Shown here: positions 26,159 through 59,638 of the stretch, in pieces
Position numbering within the stretch: the stretch's first letter is position 1
Layout: each line of letters opens with the position of its first letter
The notes under the pieces: generated by a model
Told to the model about the DNA's origin: nothing
The model's input: the letters and a program-made list of their open reading frames with translations, nothing else
Databases searched by the model: none
DNA from: Candidatus Minusculum obligatum
GTDB lineage: Bacteria > Patescibacteriota > Minisyncoccia > Phycocordibacterales > Phycocordibacteraceae
Assembly (NCBI GenBank): GCA_045401155.1
Contig: CP174360.1
Location: 419,079 to 483,078, forward strand
Length of the DNA stretch: 64,000 nt
Reading direction: 5' to 3'
Translations under genes and position numbers: made by a program

Positions 26159-26722
26159 CTATGATTGTAATAGTTCTTTCTCTTTTTTGAAAGTTTCTTC
26201 GTACAGCGCTATAAGCGCAGTATCTTCAAGCTTTCTTTTAAGAATATCTAGAACTTCCCCGTGATACCACAAATACTTCTCATGTAATAATCCAAGCTTT
26301 TCTACAAAGTCTCTTCCGTGTGTCTGATAAATACGATACTTAGACTGCATGTTGTGCACCTTGTCACAGGCTGCTATTAAAAGACCATACTGAGTGCCTT
26401 CTTCAAGCCTCTGCAAGTACGCATCTTTACGTCCTTTCCATGAAAAAATACTTTTTGGCTCACTTACATTCTCTACAAGAGTGCGCACATTCTCTCCAAA
26501 TAAATCCTCAAGCTCTTCATACGTCATATTTGTATCTTCTACGGTATCGTGCAAAAGAGCAGCAATAATGACATCTTCATCATCAATAAAATTAGAAACG
26601 AGGGCTGCAACAGAAAACACATGAGACACGTATGGAAGCCGATCGTGTTCCTTTCTGCGCTGTCCATCATGGTATTGCGATGCAATGCGAATTGCATTTT
26701 CTAAACGTAATGAATATGTCAT
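26159..26722 (-). CDS. HD-domain (p)ppGpp hydrolase, small alarmone hydrolase-like
   Basis: RelA/SpoT-type HD motifs: [13 protein letters not shown] and [13 protein letters not shown]. Confidence 0.7.
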
Positions 26723-27321
26723 ATAAACTGTTTTAGGACTTTGAAATCTTGTTTTAGCGTCTTTATAAGTTTCTGATTATAAATGGATGCAGCTGGATGG
26801 TATAGCGCCACTATGTTTATTTCATAATTTCCTGTATTTGCGACATGAACAGTGCCATGCAGATTAGATATTCCTTTTATATCTGTCTGTACACCATATC
26901 GTTTAAATAAATACTCCATTGCAAACCTGCCGAGTGTCACGATTACTTTTGGCTCTATTATCTCTATCTGACGATCTAAATACGGCGCATACCACGCAAT
27001 TTCTTCAGGAGTTGGGTCTCGGTTCTCTTGCGGACGATCTTTTACGATATTTGTAATGTATACAGACTCTCTTCTAAGAGAGATACCCCCTAGTAACTCA
27101 TCTAAAATCTTGCCTGCTCTACCGCAAAATGGACGCCCTGTTTCTGCCTCATTTTTCCCAGGAGCCTCCCCAACAATTACAATATCTGCATCTACGTCCC
27201 CCTCTCCAATAACAGGCACATATTCATTTTCTGTTCGATACTGATACAGCGGCGCATCTTGTGCACACAGGAGCTCATCTCGAATATTTTTTATCTTTCG
27301 TGTTTTTTCTTCGAGCGTCAT
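26719..27321 (-). CDS. udg: uracil-DNA glycosylase, family 4
   Basis: GEGDVDADIVIVGEAPGKNEAETGRPFCGRAGKILD is the family-4 signature. The start is placed at the MTLEEK Met, because the longer track ORF (to 27552) overlaps the upstream gene. Confidence 0.85.
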   Translation of the reverse strand: MTLEEKTRKIKNIRDELLCAQDAPLYQYRTENEYVPVIGEGDVDADIVIVGEAPGKNEAETGRPFCGRAGKILDELLGGISLRRESVYITNIVKDRPQENRDPTPEEIAWYAPYLDRQIEIIEPKVIVTLGRFAMEYLFKRYGVQTDIKGISNLHGTVHVANTGNYEINIVALYHPAASIYNQKLIKTLKQDFKVLKQFI

Positions 27322-27377
27322 GCATCTGAGTATACCAAAGAGAAAAGCTCTCCGAAGAGAGCTCTCAGTTCCAGCAA

Positions 27378-27869
27378 TTACGCTGGTGAAGGCACTTTTT
27401 TCTTGAACGTTGGTGGATTGTTTCTGCAGACAAGGAAGCCGTAGAGGGCCCAGACCGAGATGAAGCCAATTGGATCCATAAAGTCCGAAACACTTCTGTC
27501 TGAAGATATAAAAATTCTTATTGTCTCCAGCAAAATAAACACGGGATAGCAAAGACGTACGAAACGATCTATCTCGCTTGCTCTACTCTTCGGCGCAAAA
27601 CCTCCCTTTTCTTCTCTTTCAGATCTGCTCACTATGTGATTGATGAGGTTTGGTCCCCATATCACAAAAAGTGCACACACAATAAAAGAAACAATTGGGA
27701 TGCCTCCTTCTCGCAAAATGAGATATGTGTGGAACATTAACCCTGCGCCAAGAAGGCAGAAGGAAGCGACCAAGAAAAAAGTCTTGGTCACATCCATATA
27801 CTTATTTCCCCAGTCAACGATGCGCTGGAAAAAGTTGTCGATGATCCAATGATCAATTTTTTCAAACAT
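27378..27869 (-). CDS. hypothetical integral membrane protein (4 TM)
   Basis: Hydrophobic helices; no known motif. Confidence 0.4.
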   Translation of the reverse strand: MFEKIDHWIIDNFFQRIVDWGNKYMDVTKTFFLVASFCLLGAGLMFHTYLILREGGIPIVSFIVCALFVIWGPNLINHIVSRSEREEKGGFAPKSRASEIDRFVRLCYPVFILLETIRIFISSDRSVSDFMDPIGFISVWALYGFLVCRNNPPTFKKKVPSPA

Positions 27870-27921
27870 TTACTTCTCCAGTTCTGTTCTAGGAAAAACA
27901 TGCCTGAGAAAATACCTAATG

Positions 27922-28188
27922 TCAAATCGCACCCTCTTCTTCTAAAAGCTTTCGTTTCATTTCAGGACCTCCTCTGTTATATGCACCAATTTTCCCACCT
28001 GCATTAATTACTCGATGACAAGGAATAGTGGGATCATAATTATTTTTCATAATAGTCCCTACTGCTCGAGCTGCTCCTGGAGACCCTGCAACTTTTGCCA
28101 CCTCACCATATGAAAGTGTCTTTCCCTTTTTAATATTACGCACTACGTCTTGTACACGTTTCGTAAAATTACTTTTTGATTTTTCCAT
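27922..28188 (-). CDS. ogt: methylated-DNA--protein-cysteine methyltransferase (C-terminal DNA-binding/active-site domain only)
   Basis: Active-site PCHRVI and YGEVA helix-turn-helix region. The start is placed at the MEKSKSN Met; the longer track ORF overlaps the upstream nuclease gene. Confidence 0.8.
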   Translation of the reverse strand: MEKSKSNFTKRVQDVVRNIKKGKTLSYGEVAKVAGSPGAARAVGTIMKNNYDPTIPCHRVINAGGKIGAYNRGGPEMKRKLLEEEGAI

Positions 28189-28945
28189 CTTTATGTTTTT
28201 GAAGAAGTAATTTCCCTGCCTCCTCTCGATATGGGCAGTACTCACATAAAGGTCCTGGCTTTGGCACCTCATCACTATCTAATGTCTCTTTGATGTCCAG
28301 AAGCCTTTGCTCAATCCAATCTGTATTTCCTTCATACGTGATGATATCTACATCAAACTCAAGCTTTGCATCAAATGCCTCAAGATCTTTTTTTCCATTT
28401 ACATATACGAAGTATCCTGTATCTGAAACCTTGTGGCCATTTTGTCGAAGCAACCATTGGTATACGTCCATCTGTCGCTGGTACTGCTCACCCCACCGCC
28501 CCTCAAGCGTGGGCTTCTCTGCCTTTGAGGTAGCCTTGTAATCGACCACATGGAGCTCTCCGTCTTTGTTTACCCAAATATCATCAACTGCACCAAAAAT
28601 CTCAAATCCAGTTGGTTCATGGAAGTGCGTTACTCCGGTAAAATTCTCCCGCCAAACCTCCATGTCTTTATGTTGAAACGGAACCGCATCAATCCCGTAC
28701 TCCTTCATGAGCGGGTGTGTGGTCTCTTTTGCACGATGTAGATCAAACTCCTTCTTTAAAAGCGCATCGACAGCGATATTAAGCGTAAACCCTGGCATAG
28801 AAGGACGCGCTATCCCGTGGCGCTGATCTATATAAAAACAACGAGGGCATTCTCCGAAAAAATCTATCTTTGATCGAGAGATTCGATGTGTCTTTTTCTG
28901 CCCTGGAGTGTAGTTCCAATTCTTATGTCGTACTTTATATGCCAT
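28169..28945 (-). CDS. PD-(D/E)xK nuclease, Cas4/RecB-like, with CxxC...CxxC metal cluster
   Basis: RecB motifs I (FGAVDDIWV), II (HVVDYKAT) and III (QMDVYQWL), flanked by CPRC (N-terminal) and CEYC (C-terminal). Confidence 0.7.
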   Translation of the reverse strand: MAYKVRHKNWNYTPGQKKTHRISRSKIDFFGECPRCFYIDQRHGIARPSMPGFTLNIAVDALLKKEFDLHRAKETTHPLMKEYGIDAVPFQHKDMEVWRENFTGVTHFHEPTGFEIFGAVDDIWVNKDGELHVVDYKATSKAEKPTLEGRWGEQYQRQMDVYQWLLRQNGHKVSDTGYFVYVNGKKDLEAFDAKLEFDVDIITYEGNTDWIEQRLLDIKETLDSDEVPKPGPLCEYCPYREEAGKLLLQKHKDGKIKK

Positions 28946-28947
28946 AT

Positions 28948-29787
28948 CTATATAGGCATAGTACTAAGACCTTTCGCTTCCTGCAAAATTTCACTTACAT
29001 GATCCCTTGAAAGCCCTAAATCTATAAGTGCCTCCTTATTCCTCTCAAGTTCTTCACAGAGAATGATTCCTTTTGTAATAAGAGATTGTTTTTGAGACCG
29101 AGAAAGTGTTGTAAGTGCTGTGATTGGATAGACATCATACTCTGTAATTAGATCCAGCAGTGAGTCTTTTTCTGGGTATCGCCATCCGAGCATATCAAGC
29201 CCCACACACGAAGCATATTCAACCGCATTTTTTGTAAATTTTGTATTTGTAAGAAGAAGAGGCCTGTTTACTGGGCAAGACTTTGGGTCTTCATCCCGCT
29301 TTGCAAAAATATCTTCCATACGCGCCTGCACATACAGTGCCGTACGTACATTTGTCTTAAATCCTGGAGAGTTATGGAACTTAACCTCAATTGCCACACA
29401 TTCACCATCTTTTGTAGCAACAACATCAAGCTCATGATTTATACACTTACCTGGCACCACCTGACGAAGTCGCACTTTGTACCCCATTTTCTTAAAGAGT
29501 GCTGCAACAAAATCTTCAAACGGAAATCCTGTAGGACCCAAATCAAAAAGAGCCCTCCGCAAAGAATACCTTGCAGCAGTAGGACGATGCTCTCGACGAA
29601 GCTCTCTAAATGCAGTTTTGTAAATCTCACTTGTAGAGACACCAGAGACAGCGGTTTCAATCACATCAGTGGTAATTTGCTCTGCGATTTCCCTCTTAGC
29701 TCCTGCCCGAACAAGAGAATCTATAAGTTTTTCCTCACGAAAGATTTCGCTTGTACCATCAGCTTTTGTTACGTAGAAATTTTGCAT
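28948..29787 (-). CDS. ATP-cone domain fused to an Mrr-like restriction endonuclease (PD-(D/E)xK) domain
   Basis: N-terminal ATP-cone (VTKADGTSEIFREEKLIDSL...), central ELDVVATKDGECVAIEVK catalytic core, C-terminal helical domain. Confidence 0.7.
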   Translation of the reverse strand: MQNFYVTKADGTSEIFREEKLIDSLVRAGAKREIAEQITTDVIETAVSGVSTSEIYKTAFRELRREHRPTAARYSLRRALFDLGPTGFPFEDFVAALFKKMGYKVRLRQVVPGKCINHELDVVATKDGECVAIEVKFHNSPGFKTNVRTALYVQARMEDIFAKRDEDPKSCPVNRPLLLTNTKFTKNAVEYASCVGLDMLGWRYPEKDSLLDLITEYDVYPITALTTLSRSQKQSLITKGIILCEELERNKEALIDLGLSRDHVSEILQEAKGLSTMPI

Positions 29788-29792
29788 GCCTG

Positions 29793-30209
29793 CTATTCAA
29801 CAGCAAGAGCAGGTACAAGAACCTTTGTGTCATTTATAGAAAGAGAGAACGTAGCTTTTTCATCCACCTCCACATCAATACTGAATTCTCTTGGATCTAT
29901 AACTTGAATACAAATACCTCCCGTATCAACAGTAGTTAGTGTAATAGAAACTTGTTCTGGGAAACTCTCTGCAACCACAACATCCTCACGTAATTCATGA
30001 CATGGAGTTGGAAGCTGCACAATTCCAGAAATAGTATGCACCCCATCCTCAAATGTGTGCTCAAGTGCAAACTCTTCTTCTATAACTTCTGTACCATCAA
30101 CTTTTACAAGTTGATTTTCTTCCATGTTTTTCCCGGTCGGCCAAAACAGATATGCTGCCAATACAATAACGGCAATTACTACAATCACTATTGCTGCTCG
30201 TGTGTTCAT
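29793..30209 (-). CDS. hypothetical secreted/membrane-anchored protein
   Basis: N-terminal TM/signal (AAIVIVVIAVIVLAAYLF), acidic beta-rich body. Sits 6 nt upstream of the nuclease gene. Confidence 0.4.
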   Translation of the reverse strand: MNTRAAIVIVVIAVIVLAAYLFWPTGKNMEENQLVKVDGTEVIEEEFALEHTFEDGVHTISGIVQLPTPCHELREDVVVAESFPEQVSITLTTVDTGGICIQVIDPREFSIDVEVDEKATFSLSINDTKVLVPALAVE

Positions 30210-30215
30210 ACCTAC

Positions 30216-31256
30216 TTAGTATACGATAGTTCCACCACCAAGACATTCTTCTCCCCTATAAAATACAAGCGCTTGGCCCTCTGCAGGTATTTCAGGAAGC
30301 GCCTCTTTAAAGACAACCACTCCGCTCTCATCAATAGAGACAACATCTACCTCAGGACCATGGTATCTATATTGTGCAGTGATACCTGAACCTTCTGGAA
30401 ATGCATGTGTCCACGTCTGATTTGCAATCTTTACTTCTTTTGGAGCTTTTTCTTGCTGCTCCTTTTTAGAACCAACTGTGATGGTGTTTTTTTCAACATC
30501 TTTTGCAATCACATACATAGGCTCATCTGTATTTGCACTAAACCCATGACGCTGCCCGAGCGTATACAGTATTGCACCCTCATGCGTTCCGATCATATCT
30601 CCAGACTCATTTAATACATCTCCCTCTTGTGTACTTACATACCGCCCAAGGAACTCCTCCATGTCTACATGCCCAATAAAACAAAGACCTTGACTGTCTC
30701 TCTTTTGTGCAACTGGAAGATTGTACTCTTTTGCCTTTTTACGTGTCTGCGCTTTTTCTTTTACTCCTCCAATTGGGAAAAGAATATACGGCAACTCATT
30801 TTGTGTAAGTGTGTATAGGAAATAGCTTTGATCTTTCTTTAGATCAACACCTCGCAAGAGTTTAAATACTCCAGTCTCTTCCTTCACCTGCGCATAATGC
30901 CCTGTCGCAACCTTATCTACCCCTTTTGTCTTTGCCCAAGATAAAAAAGCGCCAAATTTAATATCTCTGTTACAAAGCACATCTGGATTTGGAGTTCTTC
31001 CTGCTTTGTACTCAGAAATCAAATAATCAATTACAGACTCTTTATACTCTTTTGTAAGATCAAGTGTTGTAAACGGAATAGAAAGATGCGCCGCAACACG
31101 CATTGCATCTTGCCGATCTTCTTTCCAAGCACATGGAATTCCCTCTGGGTACCAACCACGCAAGAAAACTCCGGCGACATCATGTCCCTGTTTTTTAAGC
31201 TCTGCCGCGGTTACAGAAGAATCTACTCCTCCACTTAATCCCACAAATACTTTCAT
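30216..31256 (-). CDS. mnmA: tRNA-specific 2-thiouridylase
   Basis: PP-loop SGGVDSS plus catalytic cysteines. Confidence 0.95.
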   Translation of the reverse strand: MKVFVGLSGGVDSSVTAAELKKQGHDVAGVFLRGWYPEGIPCAWKEDRQDAMRVAAHLSIPFTTLDLTKEYKESVIDYLISEYKAGRTPNPDVLCNRDIKFGAFLSWAKTKGVDKVATGHYAQVKEETGVFKLLRGVDLKKDQSYFLYTLTQNELPYILFPIGGVKEKAQTRKKAKEYNLPVAQKRDSQGLCFIGHVDMEEFLGRYVSTQEGDVLNESGDMIGTHEGAILYTLGQRHGFSANTDEPMYVIAKDVEKNTITVGSKKEQQEKAPKEVKIANQTWTHAFPEGSGITAQYRYHGPEVDVVSIDESGVVVFKEALPEIPAEGQALVFYRGEECLGGGTIVY

Positions 31257-33571: not shown

Positions 33572-34609
33572 TTAAACTAGTGAATAGGTATTGTCACTAT
33601 TTCGCTTGAATACCTTTCGGTCATTTAGATTTACAAGAATTGTATTGTCTTTTACGTATCGCTCCTTCTTTACGCGATCAATAATTTCTTCTCGAGTAAG
33701 AGGGCCCTCTTTCTCAATAAGCTCCTTAATCACATCCCGTACAACTCCTGTCTTGTATCCCCACTCCTTAAGCGCATATAGTCCACGTCCAACAAGTACA
33801 AATCGCTTATCCTTAATAAGTTCGTTGTGACATGTTGCAACGTGCGCTCGCTTTCCAAATAGCTCAGCGATAGAATCCGCAACCTCGCTAAAGTGCATAG
33901 GTGATCCATGTCGTTTCATTGCAAGGTATGCAAAGTCTCGAATTCCCTTAGCACGAATAGATGAAGAACTCACACGTCCCCACTCTCCAAGAGGATTTCG
34001 ATCTAGGTTCTTAAACATAGAAAGCCATCGTCGAAGCATTTCCTCCTTCTTGTACTCCTCATTTAGATCCTGAAGATTCTCCAAGAACCGATCAATAAGA
34101 TCTGCTTCAGAAAGAATCTCCTCATCTGGAATTGCTTTATACAGAGTCTTAAGCGCTCCTTCAATAGTTCCTGCAACATTTTCATCTACAGACCATCGAG
34201 CTTTAAACTCTGGAGTTTCTTTTGACTGTACAAAAAACTCTCCAAGTACAAGTAGAAAATGTACATGGTTTTGGATACTTGCTGTTGATCCTACAGCATC
34301 TAGGAGATCATTCTCAGACACGATGCATCCCATATCTCGGATAACACCCTCAAGCTCAGTAAATACTGCTTCCTGTTTCTTAATCTCTTCTCCCTTTCGG
34401 ATTGCATCAAGACTATGGTTCTCAATCTGACGTACACGTTCTCGTGTAATCCCATACTCTTGTCCAATAGCCTCAAGCGTCGCTTGCTTAGTGCTCTTTC
34501 CTAATCCAAAACGAAGCGTCAAAACTTCTTTTGAGCGCTCTGGAAGCCCAGACAGAAGTTGGCGAACCACCTTCTTTGGGTCGTGTGCAAGCTGTACCTT
34601 ACTTGTCAT
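33572..34609 (-). CDS. sigma-70 region-4 (HTH) domain protein with C-terminal winged-helix; transcription factor-like
   Basis: LSGLPERSKEVLTLRFGL...TLEAIGQEYGITRERVRQIENHSL is a sigma-70 region 4.2 signature at the N-terminus. No region 2 is present. Confidence 0.55.
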   Translation of the reverse strand: MTSKVQLAHDPKKVVRQLLSGLPERSKEVLTLRFGLGKSTKQATLEAIGQEYGITRERVRQIENHSLDAIRKGEEIKKQEAVFTELEGVIRDMGCIVSENDLLDAVGSTASIQNHVHFLLVLGEFFVQSKETPEFKARWSVDENVAGTIEGALKTLYKAIPDEEILSEADLIDRFLENLQDLNEEYKKEEMLRRWLSMFKNLDRNPLGEWGRVSSSSIRAKGIRDFAYLAMKRHGSPMHFSEVADSIAELFGKRAHVATCHNELIKDKRFVLVGRGLYALKEWGYKTGVVRDVIKELIEKEGPLTREEIIDRVKKERYVKDNTILVNLNDRKVFKRNSDNTYSLV

Positions 34610-39587: not shown

Positions 39588-41177
39588 TTGAGCTCAAAAA
39601 TGAAAATTGTATCAAAAGCGCTTGCGCTACTTACAAAGCCAGTTACTTGGTTTAAAAACTTACGAAAGCGAATGAAATTGCTTGTGCTTGCAGTGCTTGC
39701 GTTCCTTTTCATTGGAATTATTGCGAGTGTGCTTTTTGGACCAAAGACTACAGATGAAGATCTACAAGATACATCATCGGTAGTTGAACTTAAGTCTCCG
39801 CGAGAGATTGCAACAACACTAGATCCCCTACCTCTTGTAGGTAACGTACGATCTGCAACAGAGGCAACAATTTTAACTGAAGCATCAGGGCGAGTTACTC
39901 GTGTATACCGATCTCTTGGAGATTATGTAAGCGCTGGATCTGTTATCGCAGAAATCGAGAACAGCTCTGAGTATGCTGCTGTACTACAAGCAGAAGCAAA
40001 CCTTGCACGTGTTGAAGACTCTTCAGAAGATGAGCAGCTAAGTTCTGCAATAACCGGACTACAAACAGCAAAAGAGTCTTCTCTTGCGACAATCTTAAGC
40101 GCATACGCAACAGTACAAGATGCAATTCGTCAAAAAGCAGATGCAACATTTTCAAACCCAACAACCGCAAGTGCCGAGTATGAAATAAGCACAAGTGATT
40201 CTGCACTTGAAAATCAAATTGAAAGTAGGCGTGTAAGTATGCAACGCATTCTTTCTCGACAACAGGCAACCGGCGCAATTCTTACTACAGAAAGCAATCT
40301 TGATGTTGAGCTAAAGACTGCACTAGATGAATTAAAAGAGGTTCGCACATATCTAGATCTTGTTGTTGAGTCTCTAAACAAAGCTATTCCAAATAATGAT
40401 TTCTCTACAAGTGACATCTCAAGCTTTAGCACGAGTGTAAGTACTGGCCGAACCGCAGTTACTACGTCTATCTCATCTATTGCTGCAAGCATTGAAAACC
40501 TTGCTGCAAAACGTGCAGCAAAAGAGATTGCTGAAAACTCTCTTGAAAATAGCACCACAGGCGTAAAGCGACAGGATGTATTACAAGCAGAAGCATCTCT
40601 TGCTGCCGCACGTGCTGCATTTGAAAAGAAAGTTATTCGTGCACCATTCTCCGGAACGGTAAACGCTCTAAATATTGAGCTTGGACAGTTTGTGAGCGCA
40701 TTTGAACCTGCTGCAACGATTGCAAACAATGGGATTCTTGAAATTCGTGCATATATCACGGAGCGTGATAAAGAGTACGTATTCCCCGGACTTTCCGTTT
40801 CATCTCTTGATGGAATTAAAGGAACTATTACAGAGGTGGCGCCCGCACTTGATCCAATTACAAAGCGTATTGAAGTGCGCATTGCCCTAAGTGATACAGG
40901 ATCTATTACAAACGGACAGTCTATTCGACTTCTTGTGGAACGCACAAAAGAAAATGTAGAAGTAGTAACTCCTATTGTGCCCCTAACTGCAATTACCTTT
41001 AAAGGAAACGATCCTTTTGTCTTCACTGTAGATCAAGAAAATACTCTTGTTGCAGTACCCGTAACGCTTGGTGTGATCCTTGGAGATCGAATTGAGATCG
41101 AAGGAATTGATGTGGATACACAAGTGGTAGTTGATGCACGAGGATTTCTAGAAGGTGAAGTAGTAACAACCAACTAA
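39588..41177 (+). CDS. efflux RND transporter periplasmic adaptor subunit (membrane fusion protein)
   Basis: N-terminal TM anchor, biotinyl/lipoyl-like half-motifs (VRSATEATILTEASGRVTRV...SVIAEIEN), unusually long Ala/Ser-rich coiled-coil, beta-barrel C-terminus. Confidence 0.8.
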   Translation: MSSKMKIVSKALALLTKPVTWFKNLRKRMKLLVLAVLAFLFIGIIASVLFGPKTTDEDLQDTSSVVELKSPREIATTLDPLPLVGNVRSATEATILTEASGRVTRVYRSLGDYVSAGSVIAEIENSSEYAAVLQAEANLARVEDSSEDEQLSSAITGLQTAKESSLATILSAYATVQDAIRQKADATFSNPTTASAEYEISTSDSALENQIESRRVSMQRILSRQQATGAILTTESNLDVELKTALDELKEVRTYLDLVVESLNKAIPNNDFSTSDISSFSTSVSTGRTAVTTSISSIAASIENLAAKRAAKEIAENSLENSTTGVKRQDVLQAEASLAAARAAFEKKVIRAPFSGTVNALNIELGQFVSAFEPAATIANNGILEIRAYITERDKEYVFPGLSVSSLDGIKGTITEVAPALDPITKRIEVRIALSDTGSITNGQSIRLLVERTKENVEVVTPIVPLTAITFKGNDPFVFTVDQENTLVAVPVTLGVILGDRIEIEGIDVDTQVVVDARGFLEGEVVTTN

Positions 41178-41178
41178 T

Positions 41179-44100
41179 ATGTTTCATTTCTGGAATTTCT
41201 TTCTATCTAAACGACCTTTTAGCTATCTGCTAATTGGAGCGTTCATTTTCTTTGGGCTTGTTTCAATTATTGCAATTCCTAAAGAATCAGCACCCGAGGT
41301 GAAGGTGCCTATTGGTGTTGTCTCATCTGGGCTTCCAAATGCTTCAGCTGAAGATATTGAGACCCTTATCACAAATAAACTTGAGCAGGAGTTTAAATCT
41401 TCTCTTGAGGGTGTAAAAAATATCACTTCTACAACACGAGAAGGATCTGTTGGAGTGGTTGTAGAGTTTGAAGCCTCTGCTGATCTTGAGGACTCTATCC
41501 GCAAACTACGTGACGCTGCAGATAATGCACGAAGCGAACTTCCTGATGATGCATTTGATCCAGTTGTATCTGAAATCAACTTTGCAGATCAGCCAATCAT
41601 GACCATTTCTGTGCTTGGTCCAGTTGCAATTGAAGAGCTCACAAGTATCGCAAACTTTGTAGAGGAAGAGCTTGAGAAAGTTTCTGGTGTATCAAAAGTA
41701 GATACTGGAGGAGTTCGAGATAAGGAGGTGCAAGTAATTGTCTCTCAAGAGTCTCTAAAAACATATGGGATTAACTTAAGTGATGTTGTGGGAGCACTGT
41801 CTCGTACAAACGCGTCACTTCCTGCCGGAGATATCACTATTGGAAATGCAAAGTACGCGATTAAATTTGAAGGAGACATCGATACACCTGAGGAAGTTGC
41901 GGATCTTGCAATTTTAAGTGTTGGTGGCCAGCCTGTTTATGTACGAGACATTGCCGATGTACGCGTGGGACTTGAAGAGACACGAACCATCTCTCGCGTA
42001 TCACTTGAAGGAGCAAATCCACAAAACGCTATTTCATTTTCTGTATATAAGCGAAGTGGTGGAGACATTACTCGCATCGCTCGATCAGTACACGAAAAGC
42101 TTGATGAGCTACGCAGCACAGATCAACTACAAGGACTACAAACACTTGTAACGTATGACATGGGTGAAGAAGTTGAGAAAGATCTCGTAAACCTTACGCG
42201 CACAGGACTGCAGACCGTATTCCTTGTAACTATCATTCTCTTTATTGCACTTGGATGGCGCGAAGCGCTTATTGCGGGTCTTGCAATACCTCTTTCATTT
42301 ATTATTGGGTTCATTGGCCTGTATAACTCAGGCAATACCCTTAACTTCGTATCACTCTTCTCTCTTATTCTTGCGGTTGGAATTCTTGTGGACTCAGCAA
42401 TTGTGATTGTTGAAGGAATCCATACACGAATGAAAAACTGGGAGGGCAAGTTACAAAGTGCTCGAGAAGCAATTAAGGAGTACAACTACCCTATTACTGC
42501 TGGTACGTTTACTACCATTGCAGTATTTGCGCCCTTATTCCTTGTATCAGGAGTGACCGGAGAGTTTATTGCATCTATTCCATTTACGATTATCTTCGTG
42601 TTGCTTGCATCACTATTTGTGGCGCTTGGTCTTATTCCTCTTATTGCGTCTTCATTTATGAAGCGACGAAGCACTTCTAAGATGGAAGAGATTCAGGAAA
42701 AGTACACTCATAAACTACAAGACTGGTACAAAGAAAAAGTACAGATCATTCTTGGAAAGAAGCGTCGAGAAACATTCTTTATTTGGGGAATTATTGGACT
42801 ATTTATTCTTTCATTTTTCCTTCCTGCACTTGGACTTGTAAAAGTTACATTCTTTGAACAAGGAGACGTGGAAAACTTGTTTGTAGACATTGAGCTACCG
42901 CAAGGAACAACACTTGCCCGATCTAACCTAGAAGCACAAAAGATTGAAGAGATTCTTTTACAAGATAGTCGCATCGCTGACTTCACCACCACTATTGGAC
43001 AAGCAAGTCCATTTAATGGAGAAGGAACTACAGACTCTAAATTTGCAAACATGCAAATTACCCTTGTTGAGGATCGAAAGGAAACAAGTACTGAAATTCT
43101 AAAAGATCTTCGAAAGAAGGTGGCACACATCACCACATCAGATATTCGTATCGATGAGCCAAGCGATGGACCTCCTACAGGAGATGCTATTTCTGTAGAA
43201 CTTCTTGGAAATAACCAGGATGAGCTTCTAATTGCTGGAGCGCAGGTAAAAGCACTCTTTGAAGATATTGAGGGTACCGCCAATATCCAGACAAGCGCTC
43301 GGGACAATGCTGCACAGTTTGTACTTTCTATCGACCGAGCTAAGGCTGTGGAGCTTGGACTCTCTCCTCTTGATGTAGCGCAGGTACTACGTACCTCAAT
43401 CTCAGGAGTAGATGCAACTTCAATCCCTCAGTCTGATACGGACGTAGATATTGTTGTAAAAACAAATCTTGCAACTGAGTATTCTGACCCACACGAGACA
43501 AATCGAGCGACACTTGATGAAGTACGGCAGCTAACCATCAACGGGCCACAAGGACCAGTGCTGCTCGGGTCTCTTATTACAGAGAGTTACGAGGTATCAA
43601 ATGCAGTAATCCGCCACAAGGATGGGAAACGTGTACTTACTGTTTCTGGAGATAAAACACCTGAAGCAAATACCTTCGCTATTGTTGCTGAGTTTATGCA
43701 GCGACAAGGTGAGCTTGACCTCCCATCTAGTGTAACTCTAAGCATTGGCGGAGAGTCTGATGAATCAAACCAGGCATTTGCTGAGATGCTTCTCTCACTT
43801 ATTGTAGGACTTCTCGCAATGCTCGCAATTCTTGTACTGCAGTTTAACTCATTTAGATATGCAGGATACGTGCTCTCAATCGTACCGTTCTCACTTATTG
43901 GAATCTTTGCAGGACTTGCGGTCTCAGGACAGCCACTATCGTTCCCTTCTGTGATGGGATTCATCGCCCTTACAGGAATTGTGGTGAATAACTCAATTAT
44001 TCTTATTGATGTGATGAACAATATTCGTCGCGAGAATCCAGATAAGAGTATTGAAGATGTGGTGCTTGAAGGAACAACAAGCCGTCTACGGCCAATCCTC

Positions 44101-44316
44101 CTTACAACACTTACAACTGTGATTGGAGTTATGCCACTTCTATTCTCTTCAGCACTATGGGCACCACTTGCCTGGGCAATCATCTTTGGACTTACATTTT
44201 CAGTAGTCCTTACACTTATCCTCATTCCTATCATCTACCGACGATGGCCAGGAGTTCTTCCTGAAGAAAAAGAAAAGCTAAAACTACAAGCTGAAGAAGC
44301 TGTAGCAAAACAATAA
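41179..44316 (+). CDS. RND efflux transporter permease (AcrB/HAE family)
   Basis: 1045 aa with 12 TM and two large periplasmic loops; start is 2 nt after the adaptor stop. Confidence 0.95.
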   Translation: MFHFWNFFLSKRPFSYLLIGAFIFFGLVSIIAIPKESAPEVKVPIGVVSSGLPNASAEDIETLITNKLEQEFKSSLEGVKNITSTTREGSVGVVVEFEASADLEDSIRKLRDAADNARSELPDDAFDPVVSEINFADQPIMTISVLGPVAIEELTSIANFVEEELEKVSGVSKVDTGGVRDKEVQVIVSQESLKTYGINLSDVVGALSRTNASLPAGDITIGNAKYAIKFEGDIDTPEEVADLAILSVGGQPVYVRDIADVRVGLEETRTISRVSLEGANPQNAISFSVYKRSGGDITRIARSVHEKLDELRSTDQLQGLQTLVTYDMGEEVEKDLVNLTRTGLQTVFLVTIILFIALGWREALIAGLAIPLSFIIGFIGLYNSGNTLNFVSLFSLILAVGILVDSAIVIVEGIHTRMKNWEGKLQSAREAIKEYNYPITAGTFTTIAVFAPLFLVSGVTGEFIASIPFTIIFVLLASLFVALGLIPLIASSFMKRRSTSKMEEIQEKYTHKLQDWYKEKVQIILGKKRRETFFIWGIIGLFILSFFLPALGLVKVTFFEQGDVENLFVDIELPQGTTLARSNLEAQKIEEILLQDSRIADFTTTIGQASPFNGEGTTDSKFANMQITLVEDRKETSTEILKDLRKKVAHITTSDIRIDEPSDGPPTGDAISVELLGNNQDELLIAGAQVKALFEDIEGTANIQTSARDNAAQFVLSIDRAKAVELGLSPLDVAQVLRTSISGVDATSIPQSDTDVDIVVKTNLATEYSDPHETNRATLDEVRQLTINGPQGPVLLGSLITESYEVSNAVIRHKDGKRVLTVSGDKTPEANTFAIVAEFMQRQGELDLPSSVTLSIGGESDESNQAFAEMLLSLIVGLLAMLAILVLQFNSFRYAGYVLSIVPFSLIGIFAGLAVSGQPLSFPSVMGFIALTGIVVNNSIILIDVMNNIRRENPDKSIEDVVLEGTTSRLRPILLTTLTTVIGVMPLLFSSALWAPLAWAIIFGLTFSVVLTLILIPIIYRRWPGVLPEEKEKLKLQAEEAVAKQ

Positions 44317-57934: not shown

Positions 57935-59638
57935 TTAGAACTCCTCAAAGTCCGGAGGAATATTAACGGTTACTGATTCTGTGAATGTCTCAGATGAAGC
58001 ATCACATGTGATGGTGTACACGCTTCTGCTTGTAATAGTCACGTCTGCATCTCCATTAAGCGGATCATCTGTTGCATTATTTACAAGAATTCCTGGGCCA
58101 ACCACATCACAACTTGTAATGTCTTCAGCAGACCACTCAATGGTTACAACCTCTTGATTAGGCACACGTACAGAACCGCTCTCTCCATCTGCAGTAATGC
58201 TTATGTTTGGAAGCAGCACTTCTACACTCGCATTGTCACTTGCAGATCCACACTGTACCTGGTAGATGGCATCACTTGTTGGTGTAACAACAGCAGTTCC
58301 GCTTGTTGCGTTGCCGGTATTAAATCCAACACCAGTACATGAGCTTGCATTTGTTGAAGACCATGTAAGCGTAGCGCTTTCTCCAAGAAGAATTTCATTT
58401 GGTGATGCTGAAAGCGCTGCAGTTGCAGGGTCTCCACCTCCACCTCCTTGGGTAATACTTACTGTACATGTATCGCTAACCGTTCCATTTTCTGCTTCTA
58501 CAGTAATGGTTGCACTCTTTGTACCTTGAGAGTTGTATCGTTTAGAAACACTTGTTCCTGAACCTGAAAGACCTTGATCGCCACTCCAGGTATATGTAAC
58601 TTGACCAAAGGTATTATCTACATCAGCAGTCCAGTTAATAAGTGCTCCTGTACCGGCTGAGGTTGGGTCTGCTGAACAGGAAACAGCAAGCCCTAGGCGA
58701 TCTACCTGAATGGTACTTCGTGGACCACAGTTATTGTCCTCATTACTTTCTGCAATTTCGTTATTCTGATCAACACAGACACGCACATCGTGTGTTCCGC
58801 TTGGTGGGTTATTCCAAACGTATGATGCGGTCTTGAAGTTGCCTGCTGTTAGGTTAGTAATAGCATCATTTTCATCAAGATTTAGGTCAAACTCCTGGCT
58901 ATATGTTGAGTTGATAGCGATCTGCACCCTAATATCAATTCCTCCGGTAACATCATCGCCCCCATTGTTTGTAATTGGAACCTCAATAAGCATCTCGCTT
59001 CCATTATTTTGCGGAGTTGCAACAACGCTACCAGCAGTAAGATCAACACCATCGTTACCCGCACACGCTGCACCACTTCCTGTCACAGAATACCCAGGAC
59101 CTCCAAATGAAAGCCACCCAATTACTCCACTATTTGAATCTGCTCCACCACCCCATGCCTTTCCACTCCAAGTACAACCTGACACATTAACTCCAACACG
59201 AGGAGTTTGTCCTAAATAAATCCACCCGTCCCATCCTCCAGACTGTGCAGAACCTCCTGCGAGCGCCTTTGCCCAACCACTTACTTGGCCTGTAGCGTCA
59301 TTTAGTGTCGCCTGACATGAACCAAACGGACATCCGTTTGTATCTGAACCATTAAAACTAATCCATCCTATATTTGAAGACCATGCGTACCCTTCAATAT
59401 TTCCATTATTTTTTACACCAACCCAATAGTCAGAAGTAGCACATGTTCCTGTATTTTCACATGTAAGACTTACCCACCCGATAGTTGAAGACCATGCGTA
59501 ACCAGTTAGATTCTTAGGCACCGAAGAAGATGTTTGTGCGTGCGCAAACATCGGAAGCGCAAAGACAATGATGACTCCCGCAAGTAGTACATTTGTAAAA
59601 ATATTTTTCATAATAGGTATAGCTATACAAGCACGCAT
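57935..59638 (-). CDS. secreted cell-surface protein with N-terminal Trp-rich repeats, CARDB-like domain and Ig/PKD-like beta domains
   Basis: Signal peptide; repeated GYAWSS(T/N)IGW(V/I)S(L/F) motif (at least 2 clear and 2 degenerate copies); CARDB-like segment ending ...VDQNNEIAESNEDNNCG; Ser/Thr/Gly-rich beta repeats. Confidence 0.55.
   Translation of the reverse strand: MRACIAIPIMKNIFTNVLLAGVIIVFALPMFAHAQTSSSVPKNLTGYAWSSTIGWVSLTCENTGTCATSDYWVGVKNNGNIEGYAWSSNIGWISFNGSDTNGCPFGSCQATLNDATGQVSGWAKALAGGSAQSGGWDGWIYLGQTPRVGVNVSGCTWSGKAWGGGADSNSGVIGWLSFGGPGYSVTGSGAACAGNDGVDLTAGSVVATPQNNGSEMLIEVPITNNGGDDVTGGIDIRVQIAINSTYSQEFDLNLDENDAITNLTAGNFKTASYVWNNPPSGTHDVRVCVDQNNEIAESNEDNNCGPRSTIQVDRLGLAVSCSADPTSAGTGALINWTADVDNTFGQVTYTWSGDQGLSGSGTSVSKRYNSQGTKSATITVEAENGTVSDTCTVSITQGGGGGDPATAALSASPNEILLGESATLTWSSTNASSCTGVGFNTGNATSGTAVVTPTSDAIYQVQCGSASDNASVEVLLPNISITADGESGSVRVPNQEVVTIEWSAEDITSCDVVGPGILVNNATDDPLNGDADVTITSRSVYTITCDASSETFTESVTVNIPPDFEEF

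Follow-up and report, generated by a model that had tools for sequence, protein, structure and literature searches.

Two restriction-endonuclease-fold nucleases and neighbouring DNA-maintenance genes of Candidatus Minusculum obligatum as a probable part of the collinear gene backbone of Paceibacteria

The minus-strand gene cluster at positions 26159-30209 was analysed within a 64,000-nucleotide stretch of the Candidatus Minusculum obligatum genome (assembly GCA_045401155.1, contig CP174360.1, positions 419,079 to 483,078), which is referred to as the window and to which all coordinates below apply unless another locus is named. The cluster comprises seven genes and lies 3' of mnmA (30216-31256). 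Read along the minus strand, these encode a membrane-anchored or secreted 138 aa protein (29793..30209), a 279 aa protein that joins an ATP-cone to a PD-(D/E)xK nuclease domain of the Mrr/AF1548 type and an AF1548-like C-terminal domain (28948..29787), a 258 aa solo RecB/Cas4-like PD-(D/E)xK nuclease (PF12705) with a four-cysteine cluster (28169..28945), a stand-alone 88 aa C-terminal, active-site domain of the MGMT/Ogt type with a PCHR motif (27922..28188), a 163 aa membrane protein with about four hydrophobic segments, here termed the 4-TM protein (27378..27869), a family 4 uracil-DNA glycosylase (UDG4; 26719..27321) and a 187 aa small alarmone hydrolase with a single HD domain of the RelA/SpoT type (26159..26722). 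The domain calls and coordinates of an initial annotation, made from the letters of the DNA, hold for all seven products when compared with Pfam, NCBIfam, the PDB and hydropathy profiles. The cluster is read here, with a probability of about 70%, as a section of the housekeeping backbone that Paceibacteria (Patescibacteria, or Candidate Phyla Radiation, CPR) inherit vertically, in which DNA-maintenance genes each do the standard job of their family.

The initial annotation took the tight spacing of these same-strand genes for an operon. The spacing is indeed present, but it equals the background of the whole window, where 60 of the 71 non-overlapping open reading frames (ORFs) lie on the minus strand and neighbours on the same strand are separated by a median of 5.5 nt (60 nt or less in 43 of 52 cases). 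The cluster sits inside an unbroken co-directional run (15501-39499), and the flanking genes, leuS, a gene for a protein with sigma-r4 and HARE-HTH domains, mltG, mnmA, an M3 peptidase gene and alaS, are spaced just as the cluster genes are. Because most ORFs of the window are co-directional and abutting, tight spacing is not evidence for an operon, and a seven-gene operon is indistinguishable from the background. The largest gaps within the cluster, of 52 and 59 nt, lie on either side of the 4-TM gene. The second of them, which leads to the UDG4 gene, holds a terminator-like hairpin on the minus strand (27366-27343) that was detected by a consensus scan and is a possible transcript boundary; seven terminator-like sites are seen in the region against 7.0 expected in shuffled sequences, which makes the hairpin weak evidence. 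The promoter scan is uninformative, with 15 promoter-like sites against 27 expected and none that is distinctive for the cluster. An Rfam scan of the window yields a tRNA-Ala only, and the GC content of the cluster is unremarkable compared with its flanks, with no compositional shift.

Conservation of the gene order was followed in 80 species-level genome loci that were fetched through the ATP-cone nuclease (designated by L numbers); 20 window proteins were mapped onto them and the ORFs between mnmA and alaS were clustered. The nearest genomes carry the labels Wolfebacteria, Kaiserbacteria or Paceibacteria. Counts refer to the 77 distant loci that are left after exclusion of three close relatives, with denominators of 51-52 per gene. 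The conserved order runs leuS, sigma-r4/HARE protein, g32248, mltG, mnmA, ATP-cone nuclease, Cas4-like nuclease, MGMT, HD protein, peptidase and alaS. The flanking genes keep it almost without exception (leuS 50/51, sigma-like protein 51/51, g32248 50/51, mltG 51/51, mnmA 50/51, alaS 49/52). Within the cluster the same order is found for the Cas4-like gene in 44/52 loci, for MGMT in 37/52 and for the HD gene in 30/52, and for UDG4 in 6/52, the secreted protein in 2/51 and the 4-TM protein in 0/52, the last being present in one close relative (L001) only. The linkage supposed in the initial annotation, which scattered and unlinked genes in related genomes would have contradicted, is therefore borne out in part: the ATP-cone nuclease, the Cas4-like nuclease, MGMT and the HD protein recur in order between mnmA and alaS, while the secreted protein, the 4-TM protein and UDG4 are additions of particular lineages.

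The closest neighbour of the ATP-cone nuclease is mnmA, which is adjacent in 47 of 51 loci. The two nuclease genes adjoin each other directly in 10/52 loci and stand apart in 34/52, and no Cas4-like gene is found within 8 kb in 8/52. Their usual insert, found in 32 of 56 loci with both mnmA and alaS, is an unrelated 183 aa membrane-anchored acidic protein. At the protein level, the sequence identity of either nuclease rises and falls with that of mnmA and alaS (r 0.80-0.87), and the median identities lie in the same range, at 44% and 54% for the two nucleases, 49% for mnmA and 55% for alaS. Four of the seven genes thus form a real and old neighbourhood inside a larger collinear block, and this neighbourhood is no more cohesive than the block itself. 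A horizontally acquired island was considered as well and is rejected on composition, fixed position and correlated divergence. The 345 aa sigma-like protein upstream in all 51 distant loci, with a sigma-70 region 4 and a HARE-HTH domain (33572-34609, minus strand), shows a domain-level PADLOC match to MzaA.

The ATP-cone nuclease matches the Pfam families ATP-cone (PF03477, 1.5e-8), Mrr_cat (1.8e-6) and AF1548-like_C (1.8e-6), all above their cutoffs, and with its intact D-E-K site it has the complete AF1548-type architecture. Residues 93-273 match AF1548, a structural-genomics protein (PDB 1Y88), at 1e-31. The AlphaFold model (pLDDT 93, pTM 0.88) likewise has 1Y88 as its best fold match (target-normalised TM 0.77), followed by the ATP-cones of NrdR and ribonucleotide reductase (RNR); further matches of the nuclease domain are to Cdn1/Can2, AspBHI, MspJI and EndoMS. 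Across 20 CPR and archaeal sequences the cone residues K8, G11 and E14 are invariant and K20 is nearly so, a conserved motif from which nucleotide binding and regulation by ATP/dATP are predicted. The active-site residues D121, E134 and K136 are invariant in the same set and correspond to the D/E/K predicted to be catalytic in AF1548 (PMC1821046).

The family is large, with 439 clusters (50% identity) at E ≤ 1e-30 among 1.84 billion representative proteins, and among the 150 clusters listed nearly all members measure about 265-300 aa and align along most of the query, so that the length of the family is fixed at about 280 aa. The architecture is common to Archaeoglobi, Korarchaeota, Bathyarchaeia, Aenigmarchaeota, Nanoarchaeota and Altiarchaeales, and it is ancient because the full-length archaeal relatives of AF1548, of about 265 aa, also bear an ATP-cone. 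The deposited AF1548 chain (1Y88, 199 residues) is without a cone; a 99%-identical protein of 265 aa and nearly all homologues have one, and therefore the crystal structure, public since 2004, leaves out the presumed regulatory domain. The window protein represents a bacterial (Paceibacteria) branch of the AF1548 family that shares the fold, the D/E/K site and the ATP-cone, although it is about 35-40% identical to the archaeal proteins and stands in a different genomic context. The family lends it a fold and not a function. The searchable literature holds no functional or biochemical study of AF1548 or of ATP-cone nucleases; its one relevant item is the Global Ocean Sampling (GOS) work of 2007, in which AF1548 was predicted to be a restriction endonuclease. 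The original definition of the ATP-cone domain in 2000 reportedly already pointed to its fusion with a predicted endonuclease. No relative of the ATP-cone nuclease occurs in 2.9 million viral contigs.

Neither Cas4, MGMT, UDG nor a DNA methylase adjoins the ATP-cone nuclease in eight archaeal loci whose neighbouring genes were assigned by Pfam. Repair genes stand beside the archaeal homologue in two of the eight, namely HhH-GPD and LigD_N in an Altiarchaeales locus (L100) and Pur_DNA_glyco in another (L084). At Archaeoglobi-type loci (L081 6001-6786, L098 4001-4807, L099 4001-4840) the nuclease gene starts at, or no more than 4 nt from, the stop codon of a gene for CorA, for an amino-acid permease with a Usp domain or for MscS. 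In four Paceibacteria loci (L006, L007, L024, L027) an MgtC-family gene lies between the ATP-cone nuclease and the Cas4-like gene, and such transporter and MgtC neighbours may hint at a link with Mg2+/ATP homeostasis. In a Bathyarchaeia locus (L083 4467-6873) the nuclease gene overlaps an AMP-phosphorylase-like gene (Glycos_transf_3/PYNP_C) by 11 nt, and this second gene has an IF-2B-family gene of the ribose-1,5-bisphosphate isomerase type before it.

Three better known groups of proteins share parts of this design. The N-terminal 80 residues match the ATP-cones of NrdR (9FVR/7P37) and of RNR alpha subunits by Pfam and by fold, with the conserved pattern VxK(R/A)DGxxExF...K; the output there is a zinc-ribbon repressor or a reductase, whereas in the window protein, whose nucleotide binding is predicted, it is a nuclease. 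Can2, Card1 and Cdn1 of type III CRISPR systems also fuse a sensor of small ligands to a nuclease of the restriction-endonuclease fold, and Cdn1 and Can2 are among the fold matches. Their sensor, however, is a CARF domain instead of an ATP-cone, and the window protein is a fixed backbone gene without a cyclic-oligoadenylate synthase or CRISPR context, so that the resemblance is one of design and not of family. With the Mrr-type (Type IV) enzymes the protein shares the Mrr_cat match and the AspBHI/MspJI fold matches, but it lacks their N-terminal winged-helix domain for binding modified DNA and is a vertically inherited backbone gene instead of a patchy accessory one. Membership in classical restriction-modification (R-M) or Type IV systems is rejected, as there is no Mrr_N match (the N-terminus being the ATP-cone) and no methylase neighbour in the eight archaeal loci, and the distribution is backbone-like.

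The second nuclease is a member of the RecB family by its D...(D/E)xK and QxxxY motifs and by cysteines that bridge the N- and C-termini. It matches PDDEXK_1 (PF12705) at 8e-15 (55.8 bits, cutoff 22), barely passes Cas_Cas4 (PF01930; 23.5 versus 22.7 bits) and fails the cas4 equivalog TIGR00372 (37.7 bits versus a cutoff of 65). Invariant among 18 sequences are C33, C36, C234 and C237 (CxxC...CxxC), D121/D122, D135-Y-K137 and Q158..Y162, and the cysteines form a putative Fe-S or Zn cluster. The model (pLDDT 86) resembles Cas4 (7MI4, 4IC1), AdnAB, RecE, EXO5 and AddB at a TM of about 0.4. The homologues number more than 8000, of which the best 120 are at least 59% identical. The PD-(D/E)xK core, DxK, QxxxY and the four-cysteine cluster are shared with solo Cas4 and other PF12705 nucleases such as Cas4 SSO0001, the nuclease domains of AddB and AdnAB, RecE and human EXO5. 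The canonical cysteine pattern of Cas4 and AddB is C...CxxCx5C, and the protein thus differs from CRISPR-associated Cas4 in its CxxC...CxxC pattern as well as in its score below the TIGR00372 cutoff, the low TM and the lack of cas1, cas2 or an array. The view that it is a solo nuclease is supported by scans for tandem and direct repeats, which find no CRISPR-like array in the 64 kb, and by its neighbours, which are mnmA, MGMT, UDG and aminoacyl-tRNA synthetase (aaRS) genes; no cas1 or cas2 was seen nearby in a flank scan that was exhaustive only to about 20 genes. Solo Cas4 genes of CPR bacteria have been reported before to be inherited vertically and to evolve under ordinary purifying selection, with their role in repair or defence left unsettled, and some of those in DPANN archaea adjoin R-M systems (PMC5704561).

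About one quarter of the Cas4-like homologues (L004, L005, L008-L011, L014, L015, L018, L019, L037, L042) carry a lysine-rich C-terminal tail that ends in ...(S/T/K/P/G)LF, once in ...TIF, and sometimes in one further residue. This tail, which the window protein does not have, is reminiscent of a terminal sliding-clamp-binding peptide. A second subgroup ends in ...LKKKY(A/G/S/Q), with IKSKYAK and LKNKYQ among its variants. Homologues with 25-57% identity are also found on 12 contigs of the IMG/VR viral collection, none of which has other genes of the cluster. On one phage-like contig (L087 75-10664) a 55%-identical Cas4-like gene is followed directly by a PIF1/RecD-type helicase gene and flanked by DNA methylases, a ResIII/TnsA-like protein and a terminase.

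The MGMT domain is identified by PF01035 (8e-29, 99.7 bits) and TIGR00589 (79.3 bits, cutoff 46.4), and its IPCHRV sequence aligns with the PCHRV of solved Ogt chains; full-length Ogt has an N-terminal domain that is missing here. Its true start is likely the methionine at about 28188, from which the product measures 88 aa and the gene overlaps the stop of the Cas4-like gene by 20 nt. The two genes adjoin in 31 of 36 distant loci, and in the ORF set their frames overlap in 12 of the 23 loci that have both and lie no more than 8 nt apart in six more, counts that use longest-ORF starts and may overestimate the overlaps. The Cas4-like and MGMT genes, with their often overlapping frames, are the only pair of the cluster whose arrangement suggests real co-expression.

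UDG4 belongs to family 4 by TIGR00758 (190.8 bits, cutoff 125.3) and PF03167 (1e-33), and its translation likely starts at the methionine at about 27321 and not at the ORF start at 27552. Family 4 enzymes usually hold a [4Fe-4S] cluster by four cysteine ligands. The window protein has two cysteines and its homologues (L001-L003, L042, L044, L050, L061, L079) have one to three, and to judge from these sequences the window and related UDG4s are probably without the four-cysteine [4Fe-4S] cluster. In four loci (L004 3025-3780, L005 12862-13530, L012 12906-13577, L071 13495-14160) the same slot holds a family 1 UNG, recognised by GQDPYH, HPSPFS and a match to the UDG superfamily. Uracil glycosylases that are not orthologous have apparently been exchanged in place here, and this fits selection for a repair function at this position.

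The HD gene overlaps the stop of the UDG4 gene by 4 nt. Its product matches HD_4 (4.6e-16, 59.4 bits) and the N-terminal region of spoT_relA (75 bits), and among solved structures it comes closest to the small alarmone hydrolase 7QOC (1e-28 over residues 2-165), with Mesh1 and the hydrolase domains of Rel also matched and LLHDTVEDT aligned. The single HD_4 domain with its HD...ED motif is the RelA/SpoT-type domain that small alarmone hydrolases (7QOC/7QOE, Mesh1) have in common, and an alarmone substrate is predicted accordingly. The two remaining proteins, of 138 and 163 aa, have no match in Pfam, NCBIfam or PADLOC. The hydrophobic residues 1-27 of the 138 aa protein form a single membrane anchor or signal; it is lineage-specific and lies outside the conserved core. 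That it might be the counterpart of the 183 aa membrane-anchored spacer of other lineages is rejected, since no similarity was detected between the two (E 0.11).

The housekeeping reading is founded on the observed domain identities, the intact catalytic motifs, the conservation of gene order and the absence of defence-system signatures; the activities of all the enzymes, an allosteric regulation by nucleotides and a joint transcription of the genes are inferred beyond these. The MGMT domain would transfer O6-alkyl groups from guanine to its PCHR cysteine and UDG4 would excise uracil. The Cas4-like nuclease, with its four-cysteine metal cluster, would trim DNA ends or single-stranded flaps in repair or recombination. 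The ATP-cone nuclease would cut DNA via its D-E-K site, and its cone, by analogy with NrdR and RNR, would bind ATP/dATP and so set the activity or the oligomeric state of the enzyme. The HD protein would hydrolyse alarmones of the (p)ppGpp type. Several points weigh against this reading. The loci were gathered through the ATP-cone nuclease by peptide patterns that favour the query, so that the sample consists of genomes that have this gene. A repair role of the ATP-cone nuclease, which has no characterised relative, is guessed from its context and its fold, and its layout of sensor and nuclease resembles that of the defence effectors Can2 and Cdn1. Moreover, the Cas4-like homologues on viral-collection contigs, at least one of them phage-like, indicate that this family is not purely cellular.

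A dedicated repair pathway is unlikely, though it has several observations in its favour. The ATP-cone nuclease, the Cas4-like nuclease and MGMT would here work as a module, for example with an incision gated by nucleotides and a subsequent resection of the ends where DNA is damaged or broken; this would offset the reduced set of recombination and repair genes of CPR bacteria, and the linkage of the genes would be under selection instead of simply inherited. The order is kept across many species at about 45-55% protein identity, the Cas4-like and MGMT frames overlap in many loci, UDG4 and family 1 UNG alternate in the same neighbourhood, and genes for base-excision repair or end repair stand next to the archaeal homologue in 2/8 loci. 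The linkage is nevertheless weaker than that between functionally unrelated neighbours, as the 47/51 adjacency of mnmA and the ATP-cone nuclease illustrates. The two nucleases are usually split by the membrane-anchored protein, MgtC or other genes, a Cas4-like gene is missing within 8 kb of eight loci, and no such linkage appears in the eight archaeal loci or the 12 viral-collection contigs.

There is a rather slim chance that the ATP-cone/AF1548-type nuclease is an ancient, chromosomally fixed DNase of many archaea and Paceibacteria that is gated by the nucleotide pool. Its sensing of ATP/dATP would license the cleavage of DNA. In Paceibacteria it would then act ahead of the Cas4-like exonuclease, either in a minimal processing of breaks and damage or as an inbuilt effector of immunity or salvage when the nucleotide pool collapses.

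Nucleotide salvage as such, in which the ATP-cone nuclease, possibly with the Cas4-like exonuclease, breaks DNA down into nucleotides upon a signal of ATP/dATP shortage, is very unlikely. CPR cells are generally held to lack de novo nucleotide synthesis, which such a function would suit, and the ATP-cone, whose motif is intact here, is a recognised ATP/dATP sensor. The AMP-phosphorylase-like and IF-2B-family genes at the Bathyarchaeia locus both belong to the archaeal nucleotide salvage pathway; this context, however, occurs in one of eight archaeal lineages only, and no salvage genes adjoin the ATP-cone nuclease in the 80 Paceibacteria loci. The family is, furthermore, also present in Archaeoglobi, Korarchaeota and Bathyarchaeia, which are free-living rather than host-dependent.

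The initial annotation had considered a DNA surveillance or defence module. In such a module the ATP-cone nuclease would sense changes of the nucleotide pool upon infection and degrade DNA, assisted by the Cas4-like exonuclease and alarmone turnover. The coupling of a sensor domain to a PD-(D/E)xK nuclease parallels Can2/Cdn1, AspBHI and MspJI, both modification-dependent, are among the matches to the nuclease fold, and the proximity of some DPANN solo-Cas4 genes to R-M systems (PMC5704561) is in line with such a role. The PADLOC search that had been proposed for this purpose, run with PADLOC-DB v2 on the seven cluster and ten flanking proteins, gives weak domain-level matches to Cas4 models (8.8e-13 at best), to the nuclease domain of ZorD (1.3e-5) and to PDC-S02 (6.9e-5), but no system. 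Defence systems are typically accessory and patchy and reside in variable islands. The cluster instead keeps its fixed chromosomal position between mnmA and alaS in 80 species-level genomes, within the housekeeping backbone and across the class; its divergence parallels that of aaRS genes and mnmA (r 0.80-0.87) and it has neither a GC shift nor another signature of a variable island. Given, in addition, the lack of partner genes, with a methylase in 0/8 archaeal loci, and of any ATP-cone nuclease on the 2.9 million viral contigs, the defence module is the least probable of the explanations and hardly to be expected.

Two features elsewhere in the window may be added. The sole sizeable plus-strand block (39588-44316) encodes a membrane-fusion protein of the HlyD type and an RND transporter of the AcrB type. 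A pair of 54-nt direct repeats (59339-59503) with 76% identity and a distance of 111 nt lies inside a minus-strand ORF and probably encodes a repeated protein segment.

Overall, the genes of the cluster add members to known families, their genome is compact and collinear in a manner already known, and the cluster serves as a cautionary case. Nearly all genes of Patescibacteria are co-oriented and abutting, and long blocks of them are collinear throughout a class; therefore tight spacing, and even conserved adjacency, is no evidence of a functional operon or of a defence island. The interest that remains lies in the two nucleases. The Cas4-like enzyme is a highly conserved solo nuclease whose gene is often translationally overlapped with that of a mini-MGMT. 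The ATP-cone nuclease belongs to a family that is strictly conserved from Archaeoglobi to CPR bacteria and has no biochemistry in the searchable literature, and a nuclease regulated by nucleotides would, if true, be a new regulatory principle for DNA metabolism.

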